DNA of 64,000 bases, from positions 248,001 through 312,000 of the forward strand of contig RSEE01000024.1 of the NCBI GenBank assembly GCA_003971905.1, written 5' to 3'. Positions 28,958 to 64,000 of the stretch are shown here, one piece after another. Numbering within the stretch: the first letter of the stretch is position 1; every line of letters starts with the position of its first letter. This DNA is from Moniliella sp. 'wahieum'. Taxonomy: Eukaryota. The translations under genes were made by a program, and so were the position numbers. The notes below the pieces were generated by a model. It made no database searches and was not told the DNA's origin. It worked only from the letters and a program-made list of their open reading frames with translations.

Positions 28958-28970
28958 TTGCCCCCTTTCA
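28958..28970 (-). other. Polypurine tract TGAAAGGGGGCAA
   Basis: Abuts the 3' LTR; its first triplet is the pol stop codon. Confidence 0.85.
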
Positions 28971-31900
28971 GACCTCATCTCCCGGGCGGCGACGAAGGCG
29001 AGAGAGGGCGAGTCGGCGGGCATGGGAGACAGGCTTATCGGGGTAGAGGGCGTGGAAACGAACCACTGGCTCGGCGTCATGAGACATGTCCGCAGCGGGT
29101 ACCCACTCCCTCTCGTGGACAGGATAGCCCCGGAAGTGAACAAAGTACTCAATGCGGCCTCCACGACCCTTGCGGCGAGAGTCGAGGACATGCTCGACCT
29201 CGTGATGAACCGCACCATCATCAGCAAACTCGGGGAGAGGAGGCGGGGGCTCGATCAAGCGGGCAGGGACCACGTCACCAGGGGTGTAGGCTCGCAAGCG
29301 GGACACATGGAACACGTCATGGAGGTGTAGGTAGTCGGGGAGGCGGACCTGGTACGCGGCGCGGCCCACGGCGCGGACAATGGGAAAGGGGCCGAGGTAG
29401 CGATAGTCCAGGCCGTCAGAAGGCCGCTGGCTGGACACATACCCGTCCCGACGGACCAAAACAGGCTGGCCGGCAGTGAAGGAAGCCGCCTCGGTGCGCT
29501 GCTGATCGGCATAATGCTTGTAGCGTTCTTGGGCCGCGGCGAGCGTGCGGCGGGCCACCGCCTGGGCCGAACGCAAATCCTCCAGATATGACGCAGCATC
29601 GGGCACGGGCGAAGTGGAGGGCTCCAACTCCCCCCGGGGGAGTAACCATAGGTGAGGACAAAGGGGGACTGGTGGGTGCTCGAGTGGGAGGACGAGTTGT
29701 AGGCGAATTCGGCCGTGGGGAGGAGATCGAACCAGTTGGACTGCTGCTCGTCGAGGTAGCAGCGGAGGTACTGTTCGAGGATCTGGTTGAGTCGCTCAGT
29801 CTGGCCGTCCGTCTGGGGGTGGTACGCGGTGCTGAGGCTCGACTTGATGCCCAAGTCGGCACACAAGGCTTGCCAGAAGTGGCTTGTGAAGGTCGGTCCC
29901 CGATCACTCACCAGATCCCGGGGAAGGCCATGGTAGCGAAAGACCTGGTGTACAAACTGGCGTGCGAGCTGGGGCGCAGTGTCCGTCGTGTGGGCGGGAA
30001 TGAAGTGACCCATTTTGGTAAAACGATCCACCACCACCAGAATCGCGTCGTAACCATTGGATCGGGGAAGCTGGGTAATGTGGTCCATCGTCAAGTGGGT
30101 CCACGGGCCTTGGGGAGGGGAAAGGGGCTGAAGGAGTCCAGCGGGTTGGTGGCGAGGCGCTTTGGTCCGTTGACAGCGGTCGCACGAGCGCACGTAGGCC
30201 CACACGTCGGCTGACAGGCGGGGCCACCAATATTGAGCGCGGACACGGGCCAACGTCTTGTCGCGCCCTTCATGGCCCGCCAATGCCGAGTCGTGGGCTT
30301 GGTGGAGAATGGCAGCGCGGATCGGCGGGTCGCTGGGACGTATACCTGGTTTCCGTGCCGCAAAAGGCCGTCGCGGACCGTCAAAGCATGGCGGGGTGGG
30401 CGTGGAGCCGTAGCAAGGGACCAACGAGGGTCACGAGGCAGGAGTTGGCGGATGCGCTGTCGAATCTCGTCGGCAGACACTCGCCCCACCACCGGTGTAT
30501 CGGGGTCCGCCGCCATGAGCTCGAGGGCGGCGGCAGAACGTTCGGACATGGGCTCCACCAGTACTTGAGGTGCCGCGTCAGCGGGCCGGGGCCCCTCAGC
30601 GAGGTCGGGACGGCGCGACAACCCGTCAGCCGCACCATTCTTCTGCCCGGCACGGTACACCATAGCAAGGCGGTAGGGGGACAGGGTCTGGCGCCATCGG
30701 CCCTGGCGGCGGTTCAACAGGCGGGGACGGCGGAACGTAGCAATGGCCTCGTGGTCCGTAAGCACTTGGACAGTCTCAACACTTTCGACGTAATGGCGCC
30801 ACACCTCCACGGCGGCCACGATGGCCAGCACCTCCTTTTCGGACGTAGTATAGTTCAGCTCGGCCGCGGTGAACTTGCGAGAATGGAAGGCGACCGGCCG
30901 CCAACGACCGTGAACATCCTGCTGGGCGAGCACCGCACCAAGCGCCGCGTCCGACGCGTCAGTCTGCGAGGCGAAGGGGGCGAGTGGGATCAAAGTGGCA
31001 GAGGAGGTGGGGCGAGGCAAAGACGCGCTTGAGCTCGGCAAACGCCTCTTCGCAGGCTGGGGTCCAAAAAACGCTGGTCCTTGCGTGTCAGGTCGGACAG
31101 AGGGGCTGAGATACGGGCAAAAGAACGGACGAAGTGACGGTAGTAGTTGGCGAAGCCGAGGAAGACTTGGACTTGGCGAGGGGTTCTGGGTGTTGGCCAC
31201 GACCGAATCGACTCAACCTTGGACGGGTCCATCCCGATCCCGTCAGGCGAAACGACGTAGCCCAGGTACTCGGTGCGGCGTGTGTGGAACTGACACTTGT
31301 CGGGGTTGAGGTAGAACTTGGCCAGCTGCAGACGCCGGAGGACCTCGGCAACGTGGCGCTCGTGCTCCATCTCATTAGTCGAAAAGATGAGGATGTCGTC
31401 GAGGTATGCCAATACCGAGACGTCGAGGAGGTCACGGAGGAGGTCGTTCATCACAGCTTGGAAGGTGGCAGGGGCGTTGCAAAGGCCAAACGGCATAACA
31501 AGGGATTCAAAGTGTCCGTACCGAGTGCGGAAGGCAGTCTTACTCTCGTCGCCTTCTCTCACCCGCAACAAGTTATACGCCCCACGGAGGTCAAGCTTGG
31601 TGAAGATGCGGGCCCCCGAGAGGCGGTCCAACGAGTCACTAATCAGAGGCAGAGCCAACCGGTTCTTGATCGTAACCGAGTTGAGCGCACGATAGTCCAC
31701 GCACAGGCGCAACGAGCCGTCCTTCTTTTTGACAAACAGGACGCCCGCGCCGAAGGGAGACTTGGATGGACGGATGAACCCTGCAGCCAGGTTCTCCTTG
31801 AGCCACTGGGACAAGGCCTGCATTTCGCCCGTCGACAAGGGGTAGAGGCGAGTGAAGGTGGGGGCGGCGCCGGGGACAAGGTCGATGGCGTGATCGGCGG

Positions 31901-33030
31901 CACGATGGGCGGGGAGCGTCTTAGCCCCTGACTTGGAAAAGGCGCTAAGGAAGGAGTGGTAGCGGGGAGGGACTGTCTGGCGGACGTGCTCGAGGTACTC
32001 GGGTGTGTCACACTCGTCGGGAAACATTGGCTCGGGACCGCCAGCGACCGCGACGGACGAGACGGCCAACTCGGGCTCAGGGGGAAATGCGACGTTTACC
32101 ATGGCCTCGGGTTCCTTGACCACCTCGAGCTCAAACTGCTCCAGAGAGAGAATGTCAATAGGCGGTCCAGACCGAGAAGGCAAGGAGGGACCCGGGCCAG
32201 AGGGCGCCGAGGAGGGGGTGTGGGGAAGAGGCTGCGTACCGCGCGACGGGGGGTGGGACGAAGTGGGTAAGAGAGGGGAGGAGGGGACGGGCTGGGAGGG
32301 AACCGAGGAGGGAAAAGGAATCGAGTTGACAGAGGGGGGCGAGATGGGGTTAGATGGGGAGGTGGACTTGGGCCGGGGCCCGGGCGAGTGCTGGTGCTGG
32401 TGCGTAGTCTTGGTCTTGGGCTGGTCTTGGTGCTGGGGCTGGTCTTGGTGCTTGGTCTGGTCTTGGTGCTTGGGCTGGTCTTGGTGCTTGGGCTGGTCTT
32501 GGGGCTTGGGTGGGGGTTGGGGCTGAGGCCGGGGTACAGTCGTGGAAGGCATATGGTGATCACGGCACTGCACCTTATCAAAGTAAAGGGTGTGCGAGGG
32601 GTAGTCGGTGCTGGGGTTGTGAGTCTCAAGGAAAGGGAGGCCGAGGATGAGGGGGTGATGGAGGGAAGTGAGGAAGAACTCCTCAGTTGAGACATGGGAG
32701 CCGATCACGACAGGCGCCTTCACCGCTTGGGTCACCAGACCCGAGGAAATGGGACGCCCGTCTACCACCCTGACGACCACAGGCGACGGCAGCGTGCGAG
32801 GAACCAGGCCATGCTGGCGGGCAAAACCATGGTCCATGAAAATACTGTTCGCACCAGAGTCGACCAAGGCGGTGACCGGGATCGGGGAAAAGGGAGACGG
32901 AGACGAGGGGCCAGGATGCAGATGGGCGAGTACCGTGAAAGACCGAGAGGAGGGGGGACAGGGCCCCACTGCCGCCTCAGACAGAATCAGCGGCGGGGCC
33001 GAGGAGGCGGCGGGGAGACCTGGACGTGGG
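28968..33030 (-). CDS. pol: Gypsy Pol polyprotein (protease, RT, RNase H, integrase, chromodomain)
   Basis: ALVDSGA; LRLCVDYRALN, KLDLRGAY, YLDDILI; TDASDAALGAVL; HHCC zinc finger, HPQTDGQTER, GPF; EVEHVLDSR..YFVHFRGY..EWVP. Several 1-bp frameshifts. Confidence 0.95.
32400..32505 (-). repeat. 18-bp tandem repeat (about 5 copies) encoding (PKHQDQ)n in the protease-RT spacer
   Basis: Repeated ctggtcttggtgcttggg units. Confidence 0.9.
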
Positions 33031-34329
33031 GCACTCGGCAATGAGGTGGTCACGGGAACCGCAGTAGAAGCACGCACCTTGAGCGCGGCGCTCGGTGCGC
33101 CGTGCCGCCGCTTCGGCGGTGGCGGTGGCTGCGCTGAGGTCCATGGGCTCGGCTTCGGGCGACGAGGGCCGAAACCAATGATTGCCGCCCGATCCCGGGG
33201 AGGTTGCGGTACCATGAGCGCCCAACGATTGCGATTGGTCGATGTCAATGGCCGCTGTGCGCAGTTGTTCGAAACTGATCCGTCCAAAGTGAGCCGACTC
33301 GCCGCGGGAGGCGATTGCGTCACGCACCCGCGGCTTCAAGCCGTACAGAAAGTGATAGTAGCGGTCCTCATCCGACGCGTTGGGGTTCCAGCGACGCAGC
33401 AGAACCGTGAACGTAGCGGCAGATCCCGTCTGCCGAAGACGACCAAACTCCTCAAACGCCTTCAGCGCCGGGTTGCGCTCGCCCCACTGCTCCAGGAAAG
33501 CTGCGCGAAACGCAGGCCAAGACCGGAGGGCGGGTGTGGTGCGCGCCTCCAGGGGAAGGGCCACCTCCGAACCGAACTGCTCGACCCAAGTGAGGGCCTC
33601 CCCCTGCAGCAGGCCCATGAAGCGGTCGATCCATGCCGCCGCGCCCAGATGCGTGAGGGCGACGCGCGCGTAAATCTCGAAGGAGGTGACGACGTGCTGG
33701 GCCTGGACCCGGTCCCGAGAGTTGGGATTCGCACCAGACGACGGGCGGAAACGAACGGGCTCGAACATCTTCGGCTCTTCCGACACCTTGTTCGGGATGG
33801 CGGTCAGATCACCATAAGGCCCAGGGGCGGGAGCGGGGGCGGGGCCCGAGGACACCACGCCAGTTTGAGCCTCCCGTACCGAGGCGGCCAACCGGGCCTC
33901 TTCCGCGGCGAGCGCCGCCTCCTCCCGCCGCTGACGGAGGCGGTGCTCACGGCGCTTCGCCTCTTGCTCATCCTCGAAAGCGCGGCGCTGGTCCTCCTGG
34001 GCTGCAAGGTAGGCCTGGTGTTCCCGGGCCTCCGTCAACAGAAGCTGGCGCATTCTGCGGGCCTCATCGACCCGGCGCTGAGCGGCCTCGAGGTCCAGGC
34101 CGGACAGGTCGGAGGCAGGCAATGTATACCCCGGGGGCGCGGGCGCAACAGACGGAGCTGCATGGGGGGGTTCAGAGGGGCCAGCCGGGTGGAACCACTC
34201 CGGGCCATCGTCGTCGAACGGAGCGTCAGAGGGGGGGTCGGACGGGGGTCGGATCGGGCCGCGCCGCGCGATGGGGTGCGGCGCGCTAGGGTTACTGGGG
34301 TCATGGGGGTTGTCGTGGATCGAGGACAT
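32977..34329 (-). CDS. gag: Gypsy Gag
   Basis: LQGEALTW, LRQTGS, FLYGLKPRV, EPMDL and zinc knuckle CFYCGSRDHLIAEC. Confidence 0.93.
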   Translation of the reverse strand: MSSIHDNPHDPSNPSAPHPIARRGPIRPPSDPPSDAPFDDDGPEWFHPAGPSEPPHAAPSVAPAPPGYTLPASDLSGLDLEAAQRRVDEARRMRQLLLTEAREHQAYLAAQEDQRRAFEDEQEAKRREHRLRQRREEAALAAEEARLAASVREAQTGVVSSGPAPAPAPGPYGDLTAIPNKVSEEPKMFEPVRFRPSSGANPNSRDRVQAQHVVTSFEIYARVALTHLGAAAWIDRFMGLLQGEALTWVEQFGSEVALPLEARTTPALRSWPAFRAAFLEQWGERNPALKAFEEFGRLRQTGSAATFTVLLRRWNPNASDEDRYYHFLYGLKPRVRDAIASRGESAHFGRISFEQLRTAAIDIDQSQSLGAHGTATSPGSGGNHWFRPSSPEAEPMDLSAATATAEAAARRTERRAQGACFYCGSRDHLIAECPTSRSPRRLLGPAADSV

Positions 34330-34370
34330 CTCTGGTCGGGCTCGCCTGTTGACGGTTAGACGAACGATAA

Positions 34371-34551
34371 TGTCACAGTCGGGGCTAAGGCGAGGGAGAC
34401 CAGGATCGGACTAGGCCAAGGGGTGTAGCAATCGTTCGTGGGGAAGAAGCAAGAACAGAGGACATGGTGCGAAGTGGAAGGAACAGGGAAGGAGCGAGAC
34501 GCTCGAGACGAAGAAATTGGAAATGGGAGCGAGATCAGCCAAACTATGACA
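34371..34551 (-). repeat. 5' LTR (181 bp)
   Basis: Differs from the 3' LTR by only three 1-bp indels; no substitutions seen. Confidence 0.97.
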
Positions 34552-47430: not shown

Positions 47431-49610
47431 ATGCCGAGCTGGCGCTGGCATGCCATCCGTCGCATCCTCTTGCTTGCTTCATTACCCATGCATATCACCG
47501 CCCATTCCCCACCCCAACCCAGCAGCCCCCGCTACTTGTCTGGTACGCCCCTCTCCCACTGGAGTACATCGAGGTCGACAGACGAAAACAATGGCTGATC
47601 CTCATCGGCTCTCCCCGCAGATCTCCGGGTGGATGCACTGAAACGTGCCGAGCTGCTCCAATCGGCTCAAACGGAGCACCACTCGTCCGACTGCTACTAC
47701 CACACCTCCACCTTCATCAGGACGCACCTGCACTCCCATGTCACCTCCGACGTGCCAGGCGATTGGGCATTGGGGGCGAGCAAACAAGCCACGCGTCTGG
47801 ACCGGATGCGAGCCAGTGTGTTGAGCTAGCGCGGTGCGAGATCGAATTGGCCGGCCTGTCTACCCCAGCCGAATGCCAAGACCTCCCGCTTCTCCCTGAT
47901 CCCAGTACACATCCTGACCAGGACCGAACCGGTTCTTATCCGCGCCTCCTCCGGCGTTGCATAGAGTACGTACGTGTTCACCTACATTTTCTTCTTTGGC
48001 CCCTGACCCCCGCTCCTTCTGCACCTTTAGATCCCTTTCCCGCTCTCCCCAACTCTGGACATCCTATGTTACGGCCAGCCGTGACTTTGACGTGCATTGC
48101 ATCCAACTTCGTCAGGCGCAAGGGGTGGACCAAGCGCGGGATACGTGGCGCACCGCGTTGGAGGAACAAGCGCAGCTAATCCACGTTGTGCAACAAGGCC
48201 TGGAACGATGGAATGCGGTGTACGCCGTCCAAACGGACCAACTGCATGAACTGGCTGCCGCGCTGCAACAGGACCTGGACGCCCTTCGGGCCGAGCATGC
48301 CAATCTATCCCGCCAGACGCAACATGCCGTCGAGGAACAGCTTGCGTCGCTTACCGACAGATCGGACCAAGCTCATCAGCACGTACTGGTAGCGATGGAA
48401 GAGCGCTCGCGAGCGTTGGATACCGACCTTCACATTTTTTTGGCTGAGCAGGCGGAGACCCTGCAAACCCAGTTGGATTCGCTGTTGCGCACCACCATCC
48501 ACGCGTTGGACCGAGAAGTGACCAATCTGTTGCACCCGGTGCAGGAGGAAGTGGGCGGGCTATCCAAGGAGATGCATACGCTCAAGTTGAGCGCAATGGA
48601 AGTGGGCACAGACCTGCTGAGCGCGCGCCACGGCTTGCGCGCCCTAGACACCCATCTGGATTCCTTGCACAGTCACATTGACCTTGTTTTGGCGGATTGG
48701 ACGCGGATTGCCGAGCAGACAACACTGGCGGTAGAAGGGAGCGAACGGATGACCCAGTCGTTGGTCCAGCTGGACCAGATGACCCAACGCAAGACGGCTT
48801 CGATGGCTGCACTGCTCGATCGAGCATTCGGGTCCCGGGCAGTGGTGCTCGAGTCGGCGGTACGTTTCACGCTCCTCTATGCCCCCGAGGTGATCAAGTC
48901 CCTGTTGGTCCCTCTGGTGGCGATGAGCGTGCGGGGAACGTGGTCGTTGGGTGCGCTCGTCATGTGCGCTCTGGGTCACGGTATGGTGGTCCTGTTGCGA
49001 TGGTCACGCGGGGGGAGGGTGGTATAGGATCCGGCGCGAGCGGGGTCTCATGCTTGCTTCCCTTGCTTCCCAAACTCGCCTTGATCCGCCACCTCCTTCT
49101 CCCGTCCCATCTTCCGTTCCTTCGATCTCAGAACAAGCTCTCTTCGCCCCCCCCGTTCCCTCGCCAATTGAATCCGAATTGGACAATGTGCACCTTGGGC
49201 CAACCGATGCTTGCCCACCCGTCTTTCCCTATCCCCTCCCCTGTTCTTCTCATCCAGGGTGGGGGCGCTCAAGTTCTCTTCGCCCAGCTGCACAGCGTGC
49301 TAGCACGCCTTCCAACCTATTTCCGAACCGATTCGACGACGCAGGGGCTGTCGTGCCCAAACCCCCATGTGCACCCCGATCGACCTTGAGTTTGAGGTTG
49401 ACGCCAGGGCCCCAAGTCTGGGCCAACCGACGTGAACCAGTGGAATGGGGCGAGGCGGCAAGGGAAGGAGAGGCGGTAGGGTGGCCTGTCGCCAGTGCGC
49501 AGGGGTCGGACGCAGTGGATCCGGTGGAAGCCTGGCGATCCACCGTGGCTTCGTCCCAGGATGCGCCGACGGAGCTGTCTGAAGCCTACGAAGTGGAGAT
49601 TCTTGTCTAA
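47431..49610 (+). CDS. KAR5: Kar5/Tht1/Gex1-like nuclear fusion protein
   Basis: Signal-like N-terminus; Cys-rich domain ELARCEIELAG..PAEC..RCIE|SLSRSPQLWTSY..C; long heptad coiled coil; hydrophobic C-terminal segments. Confidence 0.72.
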
Positions 49611-49681
49611 ATATCGGTTGGTTTGGGCAAGTAAGTCTGTCCCCCCCTCCCCTCCCCTCTTACATTCACATGGCCATGACC

Positions 49682-49975
49682 ATGAACCTCAAGATATCCA
49701 TCCGTGGCTTTTGTTTGCTTGTTCTTTTGGTTGGCCAGTTTCAAGGATTCCAATGTGCACTTCACATGCTTGCCTGCATCGATTTTGATCGCCATCTCAG
49801 CTCTGTGGATCGGATTGTATACCGTTTTTACCGTCCCCCTGCTTTGAATATAGAATCCAACTCTTTGTTCATGCCATTTCGCGCTGGAGAACATCCATGG
49901 AGTCATCGACATAACTTCATCTCTGTCCGGAAGATCGTAAGAACGGGTTTGGGGCCCTCGAGGTCGGAAAGATAA
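49682..49975 (+). CDS. Possible small secreted protein (orphan)
   Basis: MNLKISIRGFCLLVLLVGQFQG resembles a signal peptide; lower GC than neighbouring genes; no family recognised. Confidence 0.2.
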   Translation: MNLKISIRGFCLLVLLVGQFQGFQCALHMLACIDFDRHLSSVDRIVYRFYRPPALNIESNSLFMPFRAGEHPWSHRHNFISVRKIVRTGLGPSRSER

Positions 49976-50403
49976 ACAAAAATGATGCTGGAAGCAGGGG
50001 TCTGGGATAGAAGGGCGGGGTTCGAGCGAGGCGTCCGTGCTGTGTGAGGATGCGGGGAAACAGTGCCAGGCGCCTCAGAAGTGTGGAGGATGGCGGGAGG
50101 GAACAGCCACTCTCTTCTGATTGAGAGTCATAGGGCCAGCTAGTCATATTAGATCCTCGGTGGATCTTGTGGTATCCGCTGTTGGTCACCTCGATCACCC
50201 CTGCGGAGAGTCATATACTGCCACGGAGTCGCACAGCGTAACACTACTACCGCCAACCGCTCAAGCCGCTGGCAAGTTCGAAGAAATCCAACGGAGATAA
50301 ATTTCATCTCGGTTGGATGTGCTGGATCCGCTCCAATCCGTTCGCCTCCCTCGCCTTCGCCTTCGCCTCCGCTATTCCCCGACCACCACCTCTGCCACCG
50401 ACG

Positions 50404-51875
50404 ATGCTCCTTCTTCGTCCTCTGCACGCCGCCACGCGGTCCTTCAGCACCTCTGCCCTGCGCAGCTCCGACAAGGCCAGCCGGTTTGTCCGCCCCGTGG
50501 CCAAGGAGATGCTGCCCAAGGGCTACGCCGTGTCTGCCACCTACGCCGGCATCAAGGCTGCCATCTCGCCCAAGCTTACCGCGCCCTCTGCTGCGGCCAG
50601 CACGCCCAAGCCCGATCTGGCCTTGGTCGTGTCTGCCTACCCTGCCTCGGTCGCAGGCACGTTTACCCAGAACGTGTTCCAAGCTGCGCCGGTGCAGTTT
50701 GATGCGGCGCTGCTGAGCCAGGGGGTGCAAGCGCGTGCGGTGCTGGTCAACTCGGGGTGTGCGAATGCTGTGAGGGCGAGCAAGGGCTTGCAGATGTCAA
50801 GACGTTAACGGAGCAAGTCAGTACGCTTCTCGCGCCGGCCAAAGGGCTGGGCAAAGCACCGTCCACGCCCGAGGCCGCGACGCTGATGATGTCGACCGGT
50901 GTGATTGGGGTCCCCTTGCCGCTAGGCACGATCCAGCGTGCGCTACCGCACTTGGCTTCGGGTATGGTCTTGCGTAACGATCCCGAAGCCTGGGACGAGA
51001 CCAGTCGTGCGTTCATGACGACCGACACGTTCCCCAAGCTGCGTGCGCGTACGTTCCAAGTTGGTGGCCAGACCTGTCGTTTGGTCGGGATCTCCAAGGG
51101 CGCCGGCATGATCCATCCGAGGATGGGCGCACCAACGTCGTTGCATGCCACATTACTTTCGCTTGTAGCGACCGATGCGCCTGTGGCGCCTGAAGCGCTG
51201 CAGACGGCGCTCAACCACGCTGTCAGTCGTTCGTTCAACTCCATCTCGGTCGACGGCGACATGAGCACCAACGATACTGTTCTTGCCTTGGCCAATGGGG
51301 CTGTGGATCGTTCCGCGCCGCTTTTGACAGAAGGTGATGCGGACTTTGCCACGTTCCAACACCACCTTACTTCGCTCTGCCTTGAACTTGCTCATCTTCT
51401 CGTCCGCGACGGCGAGGGCGCTACCAAGTTTGTCCAGGTGAGCGTGACGGGGGCTCCGACTAGGGACCAAGCTCACGCCGTTGCTCTTCCATTTCCACCT
51501 CGGCGCTGGTCAAGACGGCGTTGCATGGTTCGGATGCGAATTGGGGGCGCATCCTCTGTGCGGCAGGGTACGCACCTTTGCCCCCTTTACGCCGAAGGGG
51601 GAACGTGTGCAAGCGGGCCAAGCGCCCTGGCGCATCAACCCGGCCAAGGTCAGTGTCACCTTCTCCCTCCGCCCGGGGTGGAGGCAGCGGCGCCGCTACC
51701 CGTGCTCAAAGATGGGGTACCGCAGGCGGTGGATGAGCAGGCAGCAGCAGAGTTGTTGGCCCATGAAGATATTGTCATCCGGGTCGACCTGCAAGAAGGA
51801 GAGGCCAGTGCGGACTTTTGGACGTGCGACTTGAGCAAGGAGTATGTGGCGATCAATGGCGACTACCGTTCCTGA
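50404..51875 (+). CDS. ARG7: Mitochondrial ornithine acetyltransferase (ArgJ)
   Basis: [77 protein letters not shown] and [18 protein letters not shown]. Confidence 0.96.
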
Positions 51876-52313
51876 AGTGCAGGCCTCCGTCTGAGGGGCC
51901 TGCGGCCTGAGGCCTGATCGATGATCCCAGATCGTTCTAGCTTTCTGGCTTTCTGGTTCCATCAAACTGAACCCATGTCTACTGCCTACCCCCACCACTG
52001 CCGCTACGAGCCAACCCATAAACCCACTGTACACAGAGATCCACCAGTGAATATAAGGATCCGCGAGGCTCAACGCAACGCATCCGAAACAGCCCCGATG
52101 AGCAGAAAGAGAAGTAAAAATGGCAAGGGAGGGGGGGTGGGGGGGGGGGGGAAAGCGCTTAACGCGAACCTAGGCGAGCTCGACCAATATCCAAATCCGA
52201 AGGCAGATCATCCGAAAGGTCCGACTTGAAAAGGCCAAGCGGCATAAGCGGGGATTGAAGTGCAGCCCTCTGTCCTTCCCTTCCCCCTCCTGGCCGAAGA
52301 TCCGTGATGGGCG

Positions 52314-53949
52314 TCATGCCCACCGTTTGTCTCGGGCGGCACGAGCGCGTGCAGAGACGATTCGGTCCCAGTTCACTGCACTTTCCCGAGGCGCATCTGC
52401 CGTCGCGCCTCGCCACATCCAATCGGGCAACTGACGCGCCGCCTGCGTCGCAATCCAGTTCCCCCCTTCTCGGATGCTGGGCGTAGCGGAAGGACCGCTG
52501 GTTCCAGAGGTCCGCAGTGAGTAAGGGTAGGATTCGGGCGCCGAAGTACGCGCCCGACCGACCCGTTCTGCCCACCCAGACGGGGGAGACTCGGCCACAG
52601 TGTCCCCTAAGCCCTGGCCCACCGAACGATTTCGTTCCCGCTCCGAGATGGATGGGGTGCGTGTGTGCCGAGCGAGAGAGGCGGTAGATGCCCGTGCAGA
52701 ATGGACAGAGGGTGTGGCCACCCGGTTCGATCGCGACCCATCCCGGTCGGAATAGAGGGAAAGGGTGCGCCCTCGTGCCGAGTGGAGAGGCATGGAAGGT
52801 GAGCGGGCCCGTACGCGGCGGGCAGAGGTAGAATGATAGCTTCTCAAACTGCTAAAGGAGGAAGATTTGTTGTGCCCACGCGAACGGGCCGATATGGGAT
52901 GCGGGTGCGGATGGGGGTGCCGCCCCAGGTCCAGGTCCAGGTCCAGGTCCAGGTCCAAGTCCAGGTCCCTCGTCCCGTCCTCCTCCCATGCTTCCGACAG
53001 GACCTGGGACCCATGCTCCCATCCGATCCCAAAAGAGGCACGTTGCAGGCGTGCCGAGGGGGTCCAGGAATAGCTCATTTTGGAGCAGGTGGAAGGCCGA
53101 GCGGTGGAACTAGAATCGTTGCTTTGTTCGCTCCTGGGCCGGGGGGATCTAGACCGGCGTCGCCGGGAACTGGACGAAAAACGGAACAGGGGGCCGTTGA
53201 TTCGCTCGTGATCCCTTGCCTGCCTCTCGCGGTCCAACAAGGACCCACGAATGGCGCGGTCAATCGAAGATGTGTCGGTTGCAGATGTGGCGACAGTCGG
53301 TGGGGGGAGCAGGTCTCTGCTTCGGCCCACCTCAGCGGTTGGGGGAAGCCAGGCCAGGCCTGGCACAGGCGTATCTTCCCGCACTCGGGTGCGTGAACGC
53401 GGTAGGAGTGCAGGCTGGGGCCGTGGGGTCAAACTTTGGGAATCGCGCTGACGCGAGTGGGCGCGGTCGCGCTCGACGGCTTGCACCACATCGTGGATGA
53501 GGCGGAGGGCGTTTAGCCGTCCGGGCGGGGTGGGCGACCTAGTTGGTCCCACCGTCTCGGCCAAGGCAGATGGGGACGGTATCTGGCTGGGGCGCAGGCG
53601 CAGGCGCAGGCGTGGGGATGGACGTCGGGGTGGCTAGGCCGCTCGAGGGCCGGCGCCAGGGCTGCGCGCCGGGCGGGAGGGTGCGGTGGAGGGTGCGCGG
53701 GTTGAAGGTCTGCTGGCGTCCCTGGTCGGGGCCGCAGAGCCAGCACACGCGGTAGACGCCTTCGTCGGCCAGCTCGCCGAGCGTGGAGGCGCGGGCGTTC
53801 TTGGTGGCGTAGACGGAGCAGTACGCGTCGCCGCGCTCCAGCGCCGCGCGCGCGGGCGCGAGGAGGAGGTGCTCCATCTGCCGCACCGCCGCGCGCTCGG
53901 CGGGCATCGGCGCGTACACGCCCGACGCGTCCGACGCGTCGTCGGCCAT
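52314..53949 (-). CDS. Hypothetical Arg/Ser-rich protein
   Basis: Coding-like N-terminus MADDASDASGVYAPMPAERAAVRQMEHLL continuing by frameshift into a 416-aa ORF with a (DL)n tract; family not recognised. Confidence 0.5.
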
Positions 53950-54009
53950 GGCGTGTGGGGGGGTTATCGACAACCCAAAGCTGGCCGTCTGGCGGCAGTG
54001 CACCCTGGC

Positions 54010-54043
54010 ACGCGTGTGCCGCCGCCTGCGCGCTGTGACGTCA
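54010..54043. promoter_or_regulatory. MCB-like ACGCGT and CRE TGACGTCA in a short divergent promoter
   Basis: Exact motifs at 54010 and 54036 between ATGs at 53949 (-) and 54288 (+). Confidence 0.3.
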
Positions 54044-54287
54044 TGATGCTCGGCCATGCAGCGCACACACACGCACCCGCCGCACCACGCCAGTGCCCAT
54101 GCGGCGCACCCCGCCCGCCCGCACGGCGGCAGCGTCGCGCCGCCGCCTGGGCCACCGCGCCTTCCGCCCAGCCGCGGAACGGCGCTCCCAGCCTCGCTCG
54201 GCTGCCCACCCGCGCCCCGCCACGACAAGGAGAAAGCCAGCCCACCTACCTACACCCCAGCGCATCTACGCGCCCCCCACCTACACC

Positions 54288-55995
54288 ATGGCCGCCGTCG
54301 AGGACGACGCGCCGCCGCTCTCCCAGACGGCGCAGAGGATGCTCGACGCGCTCCAGAGCGACTCGTCGCCGTCCCCTCGCCCCCCGCCTCCCCCGCTCTC
54401 CTACCCCACTCCGCCCTGCGCTCCGACCCGACACAGCGGCAGCAGCCACCGCGACCCCCTCTGCGACCACGACAGCGACGACCCTTCCTCGCCCCGCCTC
54501 GCTATCCCATGCATCCCAGCCCCTCCCCATCACCGGCGCACGCCGACGAGCCCGCGGACCCTTCGCCCGTGTCTGAGCCGGCGACACCGGCCGCCAAACG
54601 CCGCAAACTGCCTCCGCCCAACCCCCGACGAGCCAAAGGCAAGACGCGCCCCCCACTCACCCAGTCCCGCCCCCCTCATGCCAGCCTCTCGCCTGTCTCC
54701 TCTCACCCGACCAAGATACCAGCGGCGCAGCGCCCGATCCCAAGCCCTGCGCCAAGCTCAAGTTGGTTCCCAAATATGCCTTTGACGAAGCCCGCCTGGA
54801 GGAGGTCATGGCCGACTATGGCGGAGTCAAGGGACTGGAGGAGTTGGCGCTCAAAAGCCAATCCGAACGTAAGACCTTGGTGTGCGTCCTTCTCCCTCTT
54901 TCTGCTTGACTCTCTTCCGGTTCCCGTTTCCCGTTTCATTTTTCCCTTTATCCCTGCCCCCGTTTTTTCCCTTTCTTTCCATCCCTGCTCTAGTGCCTCG
55001 TGCTCACCTGCTTCGGCTACAGGAAGCATGCGCGTCAACAGCGCCGCTTGCCCCAAGACGCAAGCAAGTTGAAAGTCTGTCCGTTTTGCCAGGAGCCCCT
55101 GCCACGAAAACCGACCGCTGTGCTGATCGCGCTGCTCACGCCTTTGCTTGCTGCTTGTGCCAATGGCACAGTAGGGGACCAAGCGCGTGTGGAATGCTGT
55201 GTCCGGCACCGCGTCGAGCGAGACAACATTGGTGCCCGCTGCGCGGCGACGTGGGTGGCCAAGTGCGGTGGACCCGGCAGCGCTGGTGAGGCGGTTGACT
55301 TCTCCAGCCATCTGGGCCGAGATCCTGCGCTCGGCGCTGCACCCAGAGCAGCACAGCTTTCTCTTCCCCATTGTGCGTGCTCGTCTGGCAAATAAAGAAG
55401 AGGACGTGCTGGGGCGTTGAATCGGATGACGACCGAGCAGGCTGGGTACATGGGGGAGGTGGGGTGGAATGCGATCTATCAACTGTTGATGCGTCACCTG
55501 CACAACCTCGCTGATCCCCGCAAAAATATTTCTCTCCTCACTGGGATGGTCCTTCGGCGCGGACCTTGCGCTGCGCATCGCGCCCCTGAGCCCGGGAGAA
55601 CTGATCACGTCGGTTCTGGTTCCCGAGGCGGTGGACCGGTTGATCCAACTGGACCTGTTGGAAGGCGAGTGAAGCGGCGGCGTACCCCTCCACCCGCCGC
55701 CCGCTCTGTCCGACGAGGCACGAGGAACCGTGCCTTGGCCCGTACGCCTGAGCCTGAACCCGAGGAGAAGAGCCCACGCCAGGCCCTGAGGCCGAGACTA
55801 CACTGTCTCCAGTACCTCTCTCCCTCCGCTGACGGACGCAGCTGGGGAACCGCTGTCTGCGGAAGCGGTGAAAGAGGCTTGGTCTGCACTCTACCAAGCC
55901 GAGCAGCAGGGCAAATCACCCTCCTCCAAGCGGATATGATTCGGCTCCAGTCATCAGTTTATGGAGCATCCATGTTCCCCATGCCCAACTCGTGA
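54288..55995 (+). CDS. RTC4-like domain protein
   Basis: CPFCQEPLP, C.RHRVE, AGYMGEVGWNAI and terminal SSVYGASMFP fit the fungal RTC4-like pattern; intron at about 54869-55022. Confidence 0.65.
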
Positions 55996-56365
55996 CTTGC
56001 ATGCGCACGCTTGCTTGCTTGTCCATTGATTGCAATGAAAACAGAATAAACCTAAACTCACCTATGCTTCCTGATAATGTTTCTCTCCGAACTGGTACGG
56101 GAGACAGAGACATGAGATACGTCCAGGTCCTCCGTCGGCTGCGTTTTCCGGTCAGGAGGAGTAGAAGCTCCGGGAGAGGGTGGGCACCGCAGGTATTTGG
56201 GTGTGCCACGCCAATCGACGAGAATGCTGCGCAGTACGTAATCCCAGCCACCTGGCTGTCCAGCAGAATCGGGGTCCCAAGGCCAGTAATTAATAACTCA
56301 TCTCCTCTCTCCTCTCTTCCTCCTTCTCTTCCTCCTCCTCCTCCTCCACTCCCTCCCTGACCAGC

Positions 56366-57537
56366 ATGCTCGCGCCGCGCTCCGCCATCCGCAGTCTCGC
56401 CTGCAGGCCCCTCGCTATCCGCTGCCTCTCCACGACCGCTGTGCCTCCCCCCACGATCCAAACCGTCGCACTGGACTACGAGCACTTCCCCGTCCCTCCC
56501 CTTGCCCGCGCGGTCCATCACCCCCATCCCCACCACCCCCCGCACCCCGAGAGCAGCGGACCGCAAGCCGCGCGCGCGCCCATGTCCAGGCCGTCGTCAT
56601 TGCCCATGGTCTGTTTGGGTCGAAGCAGAACTGGCGCAGCATCGCCCGCAGGATGGCCCAACGGTGGCGCGTCGACATCTACACCCTCGACTGCGCAACC
56701 ACGGTGACAGTCCCCATTGGCAGGGATGAGCTATGCAGCGATGGCGGCGGATGTGATCCGTTTCTCCGCACCCCAAGTGCTGCGCGATGTGCTGGGTGGG
56801 ACACTCGATGGGCGGCAAGACGATGTTGGCAACCGCGTTGGATCCGACTGTGCGCCCGCTGCGCTAGCTGGTGTGGTGAGCTTGATATGTCTCCTGCACG
56901 AGGTGCTCTCAGCACCGAATTTGACGTACGTCCCTGATCCAACCGCACCATACTCCCTTTCCTCCCCGTGCTTTCCCCCGCTGACTTGTCAATGCAGGCC
57001 TACTGAACGCCATGATCGAGATTGAGGCGGCGAAGGTCAAGACGCGCAAGAAGCCGATCAGATGTTGGCCCGGATCGAGTCGTCGTTGAGCGTGCGTCAG
57101 TTCCTGCTGACCAACCTGGAGAGGAAGGAGGGCGACGTTTTGGTCGTTCCGCATCCCGTTGGGGATTCTCAAGGATAGCATTGGGCAACTGGGAGATTTC
57201 CCCTACGCGCCAGGGGAGAGGACGTACGATGGCCGGGCTCTGTTCATCAAAGGGGCGAAGAGCAAGTATTTCATCCGATCTCTCTATCACGCCAGGGCGA
57301 GATTCGAGTTGGAGAGCTGACACGAAAGGAACGACAGGTACATCAACCATAAGAAAAATCCCTGTGGCCAATGCGCTGTTTCCCACCCACACCCATGTTA
57401 CTCTGGATACGGGGCATTGGGTCCAGGCTGAAAGACCGCATGCAGTAATTGACGCGATTGAACAATTTATGGCCGCCGGTTCCAGAGCCCCAATGGCATC
57501 CCAATGCAGCGCTGGCCTCACAAGTACGCTACCTTAA
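56366..57537 (+). CDS. Mitochondrial alpha/beta hydrolase (ABHD11/Imo32/Eat1-like)
   Basis: Presequence MLAPRSAIRSLACR; HGLFGSKQNWRS, LRNHGDSPH, GHSMGGK, LDMSP, RQFLLTNL, LFIKGAKS and TGHWVQAERP across frames. Confidence 0.9.
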
Positions 57538-58153
57538 ACGTTGCAAGGACCCATTGGCATTGCATCGTGGTGGCGCCCACCCCCGTTTCCCGATACTTGA
57601 CACCAAGCTCAACCAGAGCGCAGAACTCGCATTATTAATCAATCAATGTATTCCACCATCCACCAGTATGCCGCACCACACACCACAACACCACCACGCT
57701 TGTGCAAGCAAGCAAGATACTCGCTCGATCAGCACCCCTTTTAATCATGCACCAAGGGACTACATTGCGATCGATGTATCCATATGCACTTTGTACGTCG
57801 AGAATGCAAGATCAATACGACTGAAGAGGCGGTTGGAACTAAGGCAAATCAGGACCTATGTGGCAGAGAACGAAACAGATGAAGGGAGAAAAAGAAACAT
57901 CAATCAGATGCACGAGGGCATCATCTAAGGAGAAAGAAAGGAAGAAAGGAAGAAGAGGGAAAGGCTAGAGACGTGGGGGAACCAGTGGCCATGACAAAAG
58001 AGGAGGTGAGGGGGGGGGGGCAATAATTGGGAGGAAACGAAAGTGGATGAGAGAGGATGGGAGAAAGGAGAGTGAGCTTCTCACCGGAGCAAAAATGAAG
58101 GTGGGGCGAAGCAAGTGGACAAAGGAGAGGAGAGGTGAAAAGGGAAGATGCGC

Positions 58154-61100
58154 TTAGCAGTCGTCCGAGCCTTCGCCTTCGCCGCTCCCGCCCCAGCTAC
58201 CGTCGCCATGGCCGTTCCAACCCCAGCTGCCATCGCCGTGGCTGCTGCCGCCCCAGCTGCCATGACCGTGGCTACTGCCGCCCCAGCTGCCGTCGCCATG
58301 GCCACCCCAGCCCCAGCTGCCGTCACCATGGCCACTTCCACCCCAGCTGCCATGACCGTGGCTGCTGCCGCCCCAGCTGCCGGCGGCGTGGCCGTTCCAA
58401 CCCGAGCTGCCATCGCCATGACCGTTCCAGCCCCAGCTGCCGTCGCCATGCCCGTTCCAGCCCCAGCTGCCATCGCCATGACCGTTCCAGCTAGAACTGC
58501 CACCGCTGTGACCGTTCCAGCCCCAGCTGCCGTCGCCGTGGCCACCCCAGCCCCAGCTGCCATCACCATGACCGTTCCAGCTACCAGCACTGTGGCTGTG
58601 GCCGTTCCAGCCCCAGCTACCGTCGCCATGACCGTTCCAGCCCCAGCTGCCGTCGCCATGCCCGTTCCAGCCCCAGCTGCCGTCGCCGTGACCATTCCAG
58701 CTAGAACTGCCACCGCCATGGCCGTTCCAGCTGCCGGCACCGTGACCGCCACCTGAAGCGCTGGCGCCACCAGACTTGGAAACGCCGCCGCTGGCACCGC
58801 CGTGGCCCGAGGCGCTAGCGCCACCCGACTTGGAAACGCTCCACGACTTGGAAGCACCGCCATTGCCACTGCCGTTGTCGCTGCCGCTGCCGTGGCCGTG
58901 ACCGGTCGCACCACCAGACTTGGAGGCGCTCCACGACTTGGAGGCACCACCATGGCCACTCTCATTGCCGCTGCCGCTGCCGTTGCCACTGCCGCTGCCG
59001 CTGCCGCTGCCATGACCATGACCGCTGGCTCCGCCGGATTGAGAAGCACTCCAGGACTTCGAGGCGCCCCCATGGCCGCTCTCATTGCCACTGCCGCTGC
59101 CGTGGCCGTCACCGCTAGCTCCGCCAGACTGGGAAGCACTCCAGGACTTGGAAGCACCACTATGGCCGCTCTCATTGCCGCTGCCACTGCCACTTCCGTG
59201 ACCGTGGCCGCTAGCGCCGCCAGACTGAGAAGCGCTCCACGACTTGGACGGGCTGCCGCTGCCACTGCTGTGACCGTGACCGCTGGCGCCACCAGATTGG
59301 GAGGCGCTGGCCGACTTGGAGGCACCGCCGTGGCTGCTCTGGTTGCCGCTGCCACTGCCGCTGCCACTGCCACTGCCACTACCGCTGCCGTGACCGTGAC
59401 CGCTAGCACCGCCAGACTGAGACGCGCTCCACGACTTGGACGGGCTGCCGCTGCCGTTTCCACTGCCGTTGCCGCTGCCGCTGCCACTTCCACTGCTGTG
59501 ACCGTGACCGCTGGCTCCACCAGACTGGGAAGCACTCGCCGACTTGGAGGCACCGCCGTGGCTGCTCTCGTTGCCACTGCCACTACCGCTGCCGTGACCG
59601 TGGCCGCTAGCGCCGCCAGACTGAGAAGCGCTCCACGACTTGGACGGGCTGCCGCTGCCACTGCTGTGACCGTGACCGCTGGCGCCACCAGATTGGGAGG
59701 CGCTGGCCGACTTGGAGGCACCGCCGTGGCTGCTCTGGTTGCCGCTGCCACTGCCGCTGCCACTGCCACTGCCACTACCGCTGCCGTGACCGTGACCGCT
59801 AGCACCGCCAGACTGAGACGCGCTCCACGACTTGGACGGGCTGCCGCTGCCGTTTCCACTGCCGTTGCCGCTGCCGCTGCCACTTCCACTGCTGTGACCG
59901 TGACCGCTGGCTCCACCAGACTGGGAAGCACTCGCCGACTTGGAGGCACCGCCGTGGCTGCTCTCGTTGCCACTGCCACTACCGCTGCCGTGACCGTGAC
60001 CGCTAGCACCGCCAGACTGAGACGCGCTCCACGACTTGGACGGGCTGCCGCTGCCACTGCTGTGACCGTGACCGCTGGCGCCACCAGATTGGGAGGCGCT
60101 GGCCGACTTGGAGGCACCGCCGTGGCTGCTCTGGTTGCCGCTGCCACTGCCGCTGCCACTGCCACTGCCACTACCGCTGCCGTGACCGTGACCGCTAGCA
60201 CCGCCAGACTGAGACGCGCTCCACGACTTGGACGGGCTGCCGCTGCCGTTTCCACTGCCGTTGCCGCTGCCGCTGCCACTTCCACTGCTGTGACCGTGAC
60301 CGCTGGCTCCACCAGACTGGGAAGCACTCGCCGACTTGGAGGCACCGCCGTGGCTGCTCTCGTTGCCACTGCCACTACCGCTGCCGTGACCGTGACCGCT
60401 AGCACCGCCAGACTGAGACGCGCTCCACGACTTGGACGGGCTGCCGCTGCCGTTTCCACTGCCGTTGCCGCTGCCGCTGCCACTTCCACTGCTGTGACCG
60501 TGACCGCTGGCTCCACCAGACTGGGAAGCACTCGCCGACTTGGAGGCACCGCCGTGGCTGCTCTCGTTGCCACTGCCACTGCCACTTCCGTGACCGTGGC
60601 CGCTAGCGCCGCCAGACTGAGAAGCGCTCCACGACTTGGACGGGCTGCCGCTGCCACTGCTGTGACCGTGACCGCTGGCTCCACCAGACTGGGATGCACT
60701 CGCCGACTTGGAGGCACCACCGTGGCTGCTCGAATGGCCGGTGGCACTGCCTCCGTTTGATTTGGACACGGCACCGGTGTTGGAAGCGCCGCCATGGCCG
60801 CTCCAGCTTCCCTCGCTGTGGCCGTGACCGGACCAGCCCCAGCTGCCGTCGCTGTGGCCGCTCCAGCTGGAGCTGCCATCACCGTGCCCACTGCCGCCCC
60901 AGCTGCCATGGCCGTGGCTGCTGCCGCCCCAGCTGCCGTCGCCGTGACCACTCCAGCTGGAGCTGTCGCCGTGACCGTTCCAACTGCCGGAGCTGCCATT
61001 GCCATGTCCATTCCAGCTGCCGGCACTGTGACTGTGCCCAGACCAGCCCCAGCTGCCGTCGCTATGGCCGCTCCAACTCGAGCTGCCATCACCGTGACCA

Positions 61101-63356
61101 CTGCCGCCCCAGCTTCCATGGCCGTGGCTGCTGCCACCCCAGCTGCCGGCACCGTGGCCGCTCCAGCTCGAGCTGCCATCACCGTGGCCACTCCAGCTGC
61201 CGCTGCCATGACCGCCACCGGAAGCGCTAGCGCCGCCAGACTTGGTCACACCGCCGCTGGCACCGCCCGAGCCACCGCTTCCACCGGAGTGAGAACCACC
61301 GCTGGAACCGCCACCGGCCGACTTCGAAGGGGCACCGCCAGAACCGCCCGAAGGGCTAGAGGCAGCAGACTTGGAGTAGCTCCTGGTGGCGCCACCCGAA
61401 GATCCGGCCCCACCCGACTTCGAGTGCCCGCCATTGCCACCCGACGGGCTAGCACCGCCTGACGATCCGGCACCGCTGGAGTGAGAGTAGCCGCTACCGG
61501 AACCGTTAGACTTGCTGGCGCCGCCCGAGGATCCGGCACCGCTGGAGTGAGAATAGTTGCCGCCAGACTGGCTAGCGCCACCCGAAGATCCGGCCCCACC
61601 CGACTTCGAGTGCCCGCCATTGCCACCCGACGGGCTAGCACCGCCCGAGGATCCGGCACCGCTGGAATGCGAGTAGCCGCTCCCAGACCCGTTCGACTTG
61701 CTGGCGCCGCCGAGGATCCGGCACCGCTGGAGTGAGAGTAGTTGCCGCCAGACTGGCTAGCGCCACCCGAAGATCCGGCCCCACCCGACTTCGAGTGCCC
61801 GCCATTGCCACCCGACGGGCTAGCACCGCCCGAGGATCCGGCACCGCTGGAATGCGAGTAGCCGCTACCGGAACCGTTCGACTTGCTGGCGCCACCCGAG
61901 GAACCGGCACCGCTGGAGTGAGAATAGTTGCCGCCAGACTGGCTAGCGCCACCCGAAGATCCGGCCCCACCCGACTTCGAGTGCCCGCCATTGCCACCCG
62001 ACGGGCTAGCACCGCCCGAGGATCCGGCACCGCTGGAATGCGAGTAGCCGCTACCGGAACCGTTCGACTTGCTGGCGCCACCCGAGGAACCGGCACCGCT
62101 GGAGTGAGAATAGTTGCCGCCAGACTGGCTAGCGCCACCCGAAGATCCGGCCCCACCCGACTTCGAGTGCCCGCCATTGCCACCCGACGGGCTAGCACCG
62201 CCCGAGGATCCGGCACCGCTGGAATGCGAGTAGCCGCTCCCAGACCCGTTCGACTTGCTGGCGCCGCCCGAGGATCCGGCACCGCTGGAGTGAGAATAGT
62301 TGCCGCCAGACTGGCTAGCGCCACCCGAAGATCCGGCACCGCTGGAGTGAGAATAGTTGCCGCCAGACTGGCTAGCGCCACCCGAAGATCCGGCCCCACC
62401 CGACTTCGAGTGCCCGCCATTGCCACCCGACGGGCTAGCACCCCCGAGGATCCGGCACCGCTGGAATGCGAGTAGCCGCTCCCAGACCCGCTCGACTTGC
62501 TGGCGCCACCCGAGGAACCGGCACCGCTGGAATGAGAGTGGCCGCTACCGGAACCGTTTGACTTGCTGGCACCGCCCGTGGATCCGGCGCCGCTAGAGTG
62601 CGAGTGGCCGCTGTTGCCGCCAGACTGGCTAGGACCGCCGGAGGATCCGGCACCGCTAGAGTGCGAGTAACCGCTGCCCGACCCGTTGGATTTGCTGGCA
62701 GCGCCCGAAGAACCGGCGCCACTGGAGTGGGACCCGGTGGCGCTTCCACTCACACTCCCCGTGGCCCCACCATTGCCGCTGTGACTGCTGTTGTCACTCC
62801 ATGATTTGTTTGATGCGCCACTTGCGCTCCATCCCCAGCTCCCGGACCCACCCCTGCTGTTAGACGCGCTCCCGCCCCCGGATTTAGACCACGATCCTCC
62901 GGAGCCATTGTTTCCGGATTTACTGGCACCCCCGGACTTGGAAACGCCACCGGAAGCCCCTCCCGAGCCACTTCCATTGCCCGAAGCGCTTGCACCTTGC
63001 GATTTGGAAGCGATGCCAGTTGCAGCACTGCGACTTGCACGGGATCGGCTCTTCTTGGCGGCGCAGCCGCCTTCGGCCGAACCCTGGAAGTGCCCGCCGG
63101 CGCTGTAGCCACCATTGGCACCGCCGCTAGCACCCCAGTTCCAACCACCGTTACCGCCGTTTCCGTTACCGTTCCAGTGCCCTCCTTCGCTGAAACCGGC
63201 ACTGTAGTGGTCGCTGTAGCCCCATTGGCCGCTGACTTCGTCGCGCTTGGCTTGGTTGCGGCGATCAGGCGCAGGCGACGGTAGTGTGTATGCTTCAACC
63301 GCGACGGCGCCGACGAGCGCCGTTGCCAGAAGAGCGAATGAAGGTTGGAGTTGCAT
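58154..63356 (-). CDS. Giant secreted Gly/Ser/His/Trp-rich modular repeat protein (about 1,730 aa after correcting two 1-bp deletions)
   Basis: Signal peptide MQLQPSFALLATALVGAVAVEA and dibasic KR. Deletions near 62443 and 61711 are evident against neighbouring repeat copies; restoring them joins the ATG at 63356 to the 1031-aa ORF ending GSDDC*. Confidence 0.88.
58190..62720 (-). repeat. Coding minisatellite arrays: ~30-bp units (58190-58750, 60790-61230), 396-bp higher-order repeat (about 59220-60400), 186-bp units (about 61390-62460)
   Basis: Periods read from recurring anchors at 59221/59617/60013 and 61762/61948/62134. Confidence 0.93.
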
Positions 63357-64000
63357 CAAAATGCCAGAGTGCGCTGCAAATGAGTGTTGCGCGCGGCAAG
63401 AAAGAAGAGGAAGGAGGGTGCAGAGGACCAAGAGGTGCAGCGAGGCAAAAGAAGAAGAATTATATACTCCCAGGGAGATCACATATTTGGAACGAATGGC
63501 AAGACTGGCGTTATGCGTGTGCTGCGGGGGAAAGGGTCGCATTTTTGTTTTTTCCTTTGTCGACGTTGAGGCACTACAACAGCCACCCCTTATGGACCTG
63601 TTCCACGTATTCCTACCACCAGGTACTTGAGCCAGCGCAAGGCCCATTTCGGTTCCAGGGCCCCGTCAGGTACCCCCGTCACTCAACCACATGCACAAAC
63701 ATACCCTCGAGCACATATACTACCCGCCGCGCCCGCAGACACAGCATGGGAACATATCACCAGTGTGTCATTCTGTCCTAATAGACAGTTACCTGATCTG
63801 AGATTTGGATAGTCGAGAAGCACCCTGGACACTTCACCGTGCCGTCGAGGCATTCCAGCGCAACCCAAGGTATTTCCAAGGGGGGATGGGGTGATATAGG
63901 CACAATCGGACCCTATGCCTCATCTGTAGCTCAGTTTTCAGGCTTCAAGCCATCCCCCACCCAGCGTGTCGGGGGGGGGGGGGGGGGGGGGGGCATACAT

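Follow-up and report, generated by a model that had tools for sequence, protein, structure and literature searches.

The window analysed here is a stretch of 64,000 nucleotides from Moniliella sp. 'wahieum' (contig RSEE01000024.1, called C24 below; window = C24:248001-312000) in a 69.5-Mb genome assembly of 223 contigs. Its minus strand carries a silk-like gene of 5,203 nt, from an ATG at 63356 to a stop at 58156-58154. The original prediction had proposed a single open reading frame (ORF) hidden by two deletions, and this was recovered: read with X at each of two one-base breaks, the gene gives a predicted product of 1,734 amino acids (aa) with no in-frame stop. The product consists of 32.9% Gly, 31.8% Ser, 8.7% Ala, 6.9% His, 4.2% Asn and 3.7% Trp (Gly+Ser 65%; Ser+Gly+Ala 73%), with 0.6% Thr, 1.2% Pro and almost no aliphatic residues, and has a grand average of hydropathy (GRAVY) of -0.92. 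It contains 38 N-glycosylation sequons, dibasic pairs only at 32 (RR), 37 (KR) and 101 (KK), and Cys only at residues 98 and 1734, near its two ends as announced. The best explanation of the locus is a real, selected gene for what is probably a secreted structural protein. It is a member of an undescribed, apparently lineage-restricted family of Gly/Ser repeat proteins that are predicted to be secreted and follow a silk-like two-residue scheme; we infer their function. The parts of the gene, in the coordinates of the window, are the following.

63460..63466, minus strand: TATA-like box 110 nt upstream of the ATG, then a pyrimidine-rich leader
63291..63356, minus strand: signal peptide, aa 1-22, assigned by eye (hydropathy peak 2.39 at aa 10)
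63243..63290, minus strand: propeptide, aa 23-38, RR-x3-KR with a Kex2-type site, from the alignment of copies
62721..63242, minus strand: aromatic Gly/Ser head, aa 39-212, from the translation
61379..62720, minus strand: block A, spanning aa 213-660 in 22 subunits (19/21/22 aa) and holding both breaks
62442..62445 (near 62443), minus strand: frame break 1, unit one base short against sibling units
61709..61712 (near 61710), minus strand: frame break 2, unit one base short against sibling units
60785..61207, minus strand: block B, aa 718-858, about 14 His/Trp decapeptides, family motif just before
58799..60712, minus strand: block C, spanning aa 883-1520 in 20 units (24/30/32/36/40 aa), from the repeat alignment
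58187..58744, minus strand: block D, aa 1539-1724, 19 His/Trp decapeptides, family motif just before
58154..58183, minus strand: acidic tail ending Ser-Asp-Asp-Cys, and the stop

The signal, the propeptide, the head with one Cys and a basic patch, the four blocks and the acidic tail of the original prediction were thus all located. The signal cleavage was judged by eye and not with a predictor; residues V20 and A22 of the signal and R32, R33, K37 and R38 of the propeptide are invariant in the four aligned copies described below, and a Kex2-like gene is present in the genome. The head holds Cys98 (63065-63063) and the basic patch (aa 101-110), and the family motif GGASGG(V/I/F)SKS makes its first appearance there. 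In block A the higher unit is of 22+21+19 = 62 aa, without Trp, acidic residues or global parity. Block B shows one 11+9 register slip, repaired at once. Block C is built on a higher repeat of 24+32+36+40 = 132 aa in which Trp and Ala unit variants alternate; its 396-nt units are 97% alike, and the copy number is therefore uncertain. Block D keeps an unbroken 30-nt register and is 73% identical to block B where the two align, His making up 12-13% of both. The C-terminus is not hydrophobic (highest 11-residue hydropathy -1.05 among the last 25 windows) and Pfam gave no match in two of two pieces of the product, with a 244-aa middle piece outside the scan, in agreement with the predicted lack of a glycosylphosphatidylinositol (GPI) signal and of a globular domain. 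In the window, the strict TATA-like motif has a frequency of 0.02 per 400 nt.

Both breaks lie in block A units that are one base shorter than their siblings, 13 of which were printed in register. An intron was ruled out at these places, as the repeat units continue with one base missing. Contig C221 duplicates positions 48410-58171 of the window at 95-98% identity and differs from it, in about 9.8 kb, by 108 one-base gaps (the window short at 37 places, C221 at 71), longer gaps and 79 substitutions; a neighbouring hydrolase gene is broken in both copies, at different places. With one-base gaps this frequent between the duplicate and the window (108 in about 10 kb), the two frame breaks look like assembly errors, and two breaks per 5.2 kb is less than the one-base gap rate between the two contigs. 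C221 reaches 18 nt into the gene from the 3' side, and the last codons and the stop there are identical to those of the window; the Ser-Asp-Asp-Cys end is found again in one paralogue. The repeat counts given here rest on this noisy assembly.

The coding frame was assayed by comparing repeat units with one another. In the read frame, 14 of 21 between-unit differences are synonymous in the core of block A (28% expected) and 19 of 30 in that of block C (24% expected); the bias is weaker in block D (9/31; 18% expected, p = 0.09). The mirror antisense frame is raised too, with 12/21 in block A, 15/30 in block C and 12/31 in block D, where it exceeds the read frame; such a rise is expected because the two frames share third positions. 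At the level of sequence, these comparisons show that the repeat reading goes beyond chance, with selection acting on the protein. Long Ala/Val/Thr-rich alternative frames were rejected: they have no start and no signal, and a synonymous excess in the mirror frame only.

Paralogues and relatives

Four more copies of the gene, one of them intact, were found in the genome. The N-terminus as query gave four matches among 11 candidates, corresponding to three further genes, and the fourth paralogue came from another query. With the window gene as copy A, they are:

C24:324587: paralogue B, head to head with A and 13 kb apart, intact, 581 aa
C24:329218: paralogue C
C84:194087: paralogue D
about C52:319870: paralogue D'

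The copies have in common the signal, the RR-x3-KR propeptide, a TATA-like box (at -126 in B, -137 in C as a weaker variant and -159/-167 in D), the GGASGG(V/I/F)SKS motif, Gly-Trp repeats and a related tail. Between 7 and 13 frame switches were called in each of C, D and D' by a heuristic whose first one or two calls per gene are artefacts of the method. D and D' lie within a duplicated 10-kb segment, 89-91% alike, may be alleles of one another and carry unequal numbers of repeats, at about 590 versus 890 aa; their His content is only 1-2%. Paralogue B has Cys at 159 and at 581, in a Ser-Asp-Asp-Cys end, paralogue C has one Cys just past the KR site and none at its end, and the well-framed mature parts of D and D' have none. 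The terminal Cys is kept in only two of the five copies and the inner positions are not equivalent; chaining through two Cys, as first suggested, would be possible for copy A and paralogue B but is not a property of the whole family.

Other candidates were set aside. The pattern hits on C79 and C3 and the candidates on C32 and C116 were checked and are not family members, and the pattern hit on C67 has a stop as its second codon. An ORF on C3 (about 191500-191800, minus strand) is, by eye, what we take to be a diverged PCNA N-terminus. A 75-nt piece present at C217:3204-3278 and C11:164088-164162 matches the D-type repeat in 20 of 25 residues and sits in a longer sequence common to both loci, as would a fragment of a gene picked up by a repeated element. 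Some segments of about 10 kb are present in duplicate in the assembly (C221 and window 48410-58171; C52:311001-321000 and C84 about 193000-202000), 89-98% identical and with many one-base gaps, as uncollapsed haplotypes or duplications in an error-rich assembly would be. The spacers between family genes (C24:311357-324586) carry arrays of a 7-base palindrome and a 36/55-nt tandem repeat, and the 16 ORFs scanned in the 13 kb that separate A from B gave no Pfam family.

A homologue of the product was found in no collection searched, these being low-complexity searches, which are weak, the repeat searches because of composition filters. The N-terminal profile gave two matches among 1.84 billion representatives, one a receptor phosphatase rich in fibronectin-like repeats and the other a tandem-repeat ORF, both dismissed on reading, and none among 8,000 candidates of longer proteins. 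Block D confirmed none of 3,687 candidates and found no usable match in the ESM Atlas. None of 171 and of 435 pattern matches in metagenome contigs was confirmed, nor any of 112 in prokaryote genomes and 42 in viral contigs, and Pfam was blank on the frames of paralogues B, C and D. In the PDB, four WD40 chains were matched (best E 0.0003) and dismissed as a coincidence of Gly-His/Trp spacing, the chain having no aliphatic core. The statement that no described family is recognisable held in every search run, N-terminal profile included. No such fungal protein was found in print, within the open-licence literature. AlphaFold gave a predicted local distance difference test (pLDDT) of 39 for block D and of 44 for a piece of D' with low-confidence strands in its last third, neither of which is evidence; a joint prediction of four copies of a 64-aa block D piece scored 0.03 and gives no verdict.

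The lineage was placed with a phospholipase D fragment, at most 75% identical to proteins of named smut fungi and 87-93% to three others. The tree had 34 rows, 33 of them selected among 120 hits; it places the fragment within Ustilaginomycotina on a long branch shared with those three alone (100/100), and does not resolve the fragment's place among the named orders. The nearest relatives of the fungus are known only from contigs of 4-7 kb; the lineage is poorly sampled, so that the claim of orphan status is weakened.

Two-residue register and possible assembly

From aa 718 to 1724, a span covering blocks B, C and D and both linkers, residues are sorted by parity. One parity collects His (89:1), Asn (35:3), Asp (19:2) and Ser (283:40), and the other Trp (1:55), Lys (0:24), Gln (0:21), Ala (6:66) and Gly (66:274). 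Counted separately, block C gives Ser 217:16, His 48:0, Trp 0:12, Lys 0:22 and Ala 0:59, and block D His 22:0 and Trp 0:28. The sole off-register Trp stands in an 11-residue unit that is followed by one of 9 residues. The register score is 0.56-0.87 in nine of nine scoring windows starting at aa 739-1539, against best-window maxima of 0.48 in 91 other ORFs of the 64,000-nt window and 0.45 in 120 phospholipase D homologues. On a similar score, residue shuffles reached at most 0.13 versus 0.74 observed. The same split (Ser/His/Asn versus Ala/Trp/Ile/Val) recurs in the in-frame pieces of paralogues C (4/4), D (4/5) and D' (6/6), and of 44 distinct Trp-to-Trp spacings over copies A-D only 6 are odd. 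This register fits the pattern expected of two-faced β-strands. According to published work, a sequence in which polar positions alternate with non-polar ones matches amphipathic β-strands and promotes amyloid-like structure, and is rare in natural proteins probably for that reason (PMC2680634); silk fibroin uses a two-residue alternation (PMC6947416).

We consider it somewhat better than even that the product is a secreted, self-assembling β-sheet film or fibre, which would act like lacewing silk or smut repellents while belonging to neither family. After removal of the signal and Kex2 cleavage, a chain of about 149 kDa would leave the cell unfolded and assemble outside into β-sheets with two unlike faces. 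The Gly/Ala/Trp/Lys/Gln face would pack or meet air, wax or another sheet, and the Ser/His/Asn/Asp face would stay wet, carry any glycans and perhaps bind Zn or Cu. Block A, devoid of global register, may serve as a flexible, soft segment. The product could be a film or fibre on hyphae, spores or an attachment site, the job of the Rep1 amyloid in Ustilago maydis; the two Cys may add cross-links in this copy and are not essential to the family design. Alternatively, strands could fold back at Gly-Gly and Asn-Gly pairs into a cross-β meander, which would distribute residues over the faces in another way and set Trp across from His. The extracellular structural polymer of the original prediction stands as the best reading, backed by register and paralogues, but sequence alone can choose neither between extended and folded-back strands nor between the adhesive, spore matrix or fibre that had been listed.

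Several observations weigh against such an assembly. Under a stricter null, in which each unit length may flip parity, the observed score was reached in 1.8% of 5,000 trials, and tandem copying of even-length units together with six-base Ser-Gly slippage yields parity cheaply. Nor are the Trp-to-Trp spacings independent of one another. Block A (aa 213-660) is without global register and that of the intact paralogue B is only local (whole-chain p = 0.71). The "non-polar" face is more than half Gly and weakly hydrophobic, as the GRAVY of the product reflects, and the sequons together with 32% Ser could keep the chain glycosylated and disordered.

The closest likeness among the silks is with the lacewing egg-stalk cross-β silks (MalXB1/2, ChryC1-3), which are secreted and have a repetitive Ser/Gly/Ala-rich core and a C-terminal Asp/Cys motif (PMC5485732), all of which are seen here. 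ChryC1 and ChryC3 end in Ser-Asp-Asp-Cys-Ser-Cys, as read by hand from cloning primers, and genes A and B in Ser-Asp-Asp-Cys, a likeness that was noticed after the fact, is uncalibrated and concerns two of the five family copies only. In contrast, the lacewing period is of 16 residues, whereas those found here are 10, 19-22 and 24-40, with Trp/His blocks and a KR propeptide in addition. The likeness is assumed to be convergence, given the fungal genes around this one and its fungal paralogues. The Bombyx fibroin heavy chain, like other silks of block-copolymer type, shares the long two-residue alternation, the blocks and the very large size (PMC6947416); unlike them, the product has Gly in 274 of about 504 positions of its parity, a Ser/His/Asn/Asp partner face and no Pfam match. 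Secreted repeat proteins serve smut fungi as surface amyloid (PMC3133707), and Rep1 and the KEX2-processed repeat proteins resemble the product as pre-pro secreted repeat proteins of a smut-related fungus with a proposed surface amyloid role (PMC3133707, PMC6339444). The latter are defined by KEX2 sites between repeats, and Rep1 is cut between its 12 repeats; here the signal (by eye) and internal repeats are present, but no dibasic site follows aa 102 and the chain should remain whole. Barnacle Gly/Ser-rich cement, squid-beak HBPs, Nereis NVJP, Glycera MTP and velvet-worm slime proteins, compared by description, likewise have low-complexity Gly/Ser or Gly/His/aromatic blocks, with Cys confined to the ends in velvet-worm slime (PMC5099703, PMC9999432), but they are animal proteins with Tyr/Phe instead of Trp.

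The comparison with classical fungal surface proteins was negative in each case. Known fungal surface polymers are the hydrophobins, the Kex2-cut repellents and the GPI-anchored adhesins. Adhesins of the Flo/Als type carry a hydrophobic C-terminal GPI signal and a folded N-terminal adhesion domain, neither of which is seen here. Hydrophobins have an eight-cysteine pattern, unlike the two Cys of the product, which has no Pfam match; a hydrophobin search of the genome gave no match, but its control failed to match too and the search is uninformative. Collagen-like fimbrial proteins are made of Gly-X-Y triplets, whereas the period here is two, with 1.2% Pro and no Pfam match. If the proposed assembly is true, fungi would have a further way of building extracellular material, in the form of an unanchored 150-kDa chain that follows silk grammar, and fungal Trp/His decapeptide blocks would be of interest for protein-materials work. 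A bolder version, which we regard as rather improbable, is a true fungal silk, i.e. a lineage-specific family of large secreted proteins that reached the cross-β design, with its two-faced Ser/Gly/Ala strands and Asp-Asp-Cys end, independently of insects, as threads or films, with Trp packing, metal hardening through His/Asp, and cross-linking set by two-, one- and no-Cys members.

Alternative explanations

The product could instead be a disordered, heavily glycosylated mucilage or hydrogel protein, giving a hydrated coat or a spore matrix held together by weak contacts of Trp/His stickers, without ordered β-sheet, in which case it would be an ordinary orphan repeat protein. We hold this to be unlikely, although the Gly+Ser content, the near absence of aliphatic residues, the 38 sequons and the negative GRAVY all agree with it, as does the O-mannosylation of the Ser-rich proteins that fungi secrete. 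Repeat proteins of the Gly/His/aromatic type from squid beak and bloodworm jaw are also described as phase-separating (PMC9999432). A disordered chain, however, has no need for a register that extends over 1,000 residues and recurs in paralogues built of other repeats. Fungal mucin-like stalks are usually Thr/Pro-rich, which the product is not (Thr 0.6%, Pro 1.2%).

It is quite unlikely that the product is a host-facing effector or hyphal shield at the plant interface, like Rsp3 of U. maydis, Rbf1 of Magnaporthe or the rust GSRE proteins. The organism falls within Ustilaginomycotina, and Rsp3 is a secreted, unprocessed repeat protein without GPI anchor that coats hyphae, with several repeat types, a processed N-terminus and a variable length (PMC5923269), as seen here in the differing repeat numbers of D and D'; Rbf1 is a 658-aa Gly/Ala-rich secreted protein (PMC5053420). 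Against this, no homology to Rsp3, Rbf1 or GSRE appeared in searches that included named smut and other fungal proteins, and the product lacks the Gln/Pro region of Rsp3 and its Cys-rich region after the signal and differs from it in composition. The GSRE proteins are small secreted proteins with homologues confined to rusts, a description that the product does not fit, and PstGSRE4 is of 232 aa with 13% Gly and 19% Ser (PMC9321418).

A metal-binding scaffold, in which His/Asp arrays hold Cu or Zn and harden or melanise the spore wall, is compatible with a β-sheet film or fibre but very unlikely as an explanation in itself. It is suggested by the His-rich blocks B and D, with His at the same parity as Asp, and by Nereis NVJP-1, which gives amyloid-like fibrils with Zn, and Glycera MTP, found in a Cu-melanin composite (PMC9999432). 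However, His amounts to 27-40% in bloodworm and clamworm jaw proteins versus 6.9% here and 1-2% in D and D', and no oxidase was found among 75 of 141 listed neighbouring ORFs or the 16 window ORFs scanned. That the gene is dead, its breaks being real, or is a mis-assembled long array is highly improbable: the two breaks, the frame switches called in C, D and D', the end of C221 within the gene and the near-identical block C units would agree with it, but the breaks are rarer than the gaps between the two contigs, which also fall inside the hydrolase gene, and the lack of an in-frame stop, the synonymous bias and the intact paralogue B speak against it.

Neighbouring sequences

The ORFs around the gene are ordinary eukaryotic genes, with Pfam hits in 8 of the 16 scanned. 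The one at 56367-57500 (plus strand) reads by eye like an α/β hydrolase, Pfam being blank in two fragments of it, and its one-base gaps differ between the window and C221. At about 52300-54250, a pair of ORFs with shared wording, without Pfam match in those scanned, recurs downstream of paralogue D and is possibly a repeated element. A sequence resembling a long terminal repeat (LTR) retrotransposon, in which both a protease and a reverse transcriptase were matched, occupies about 28970-34410 on the minus strand.

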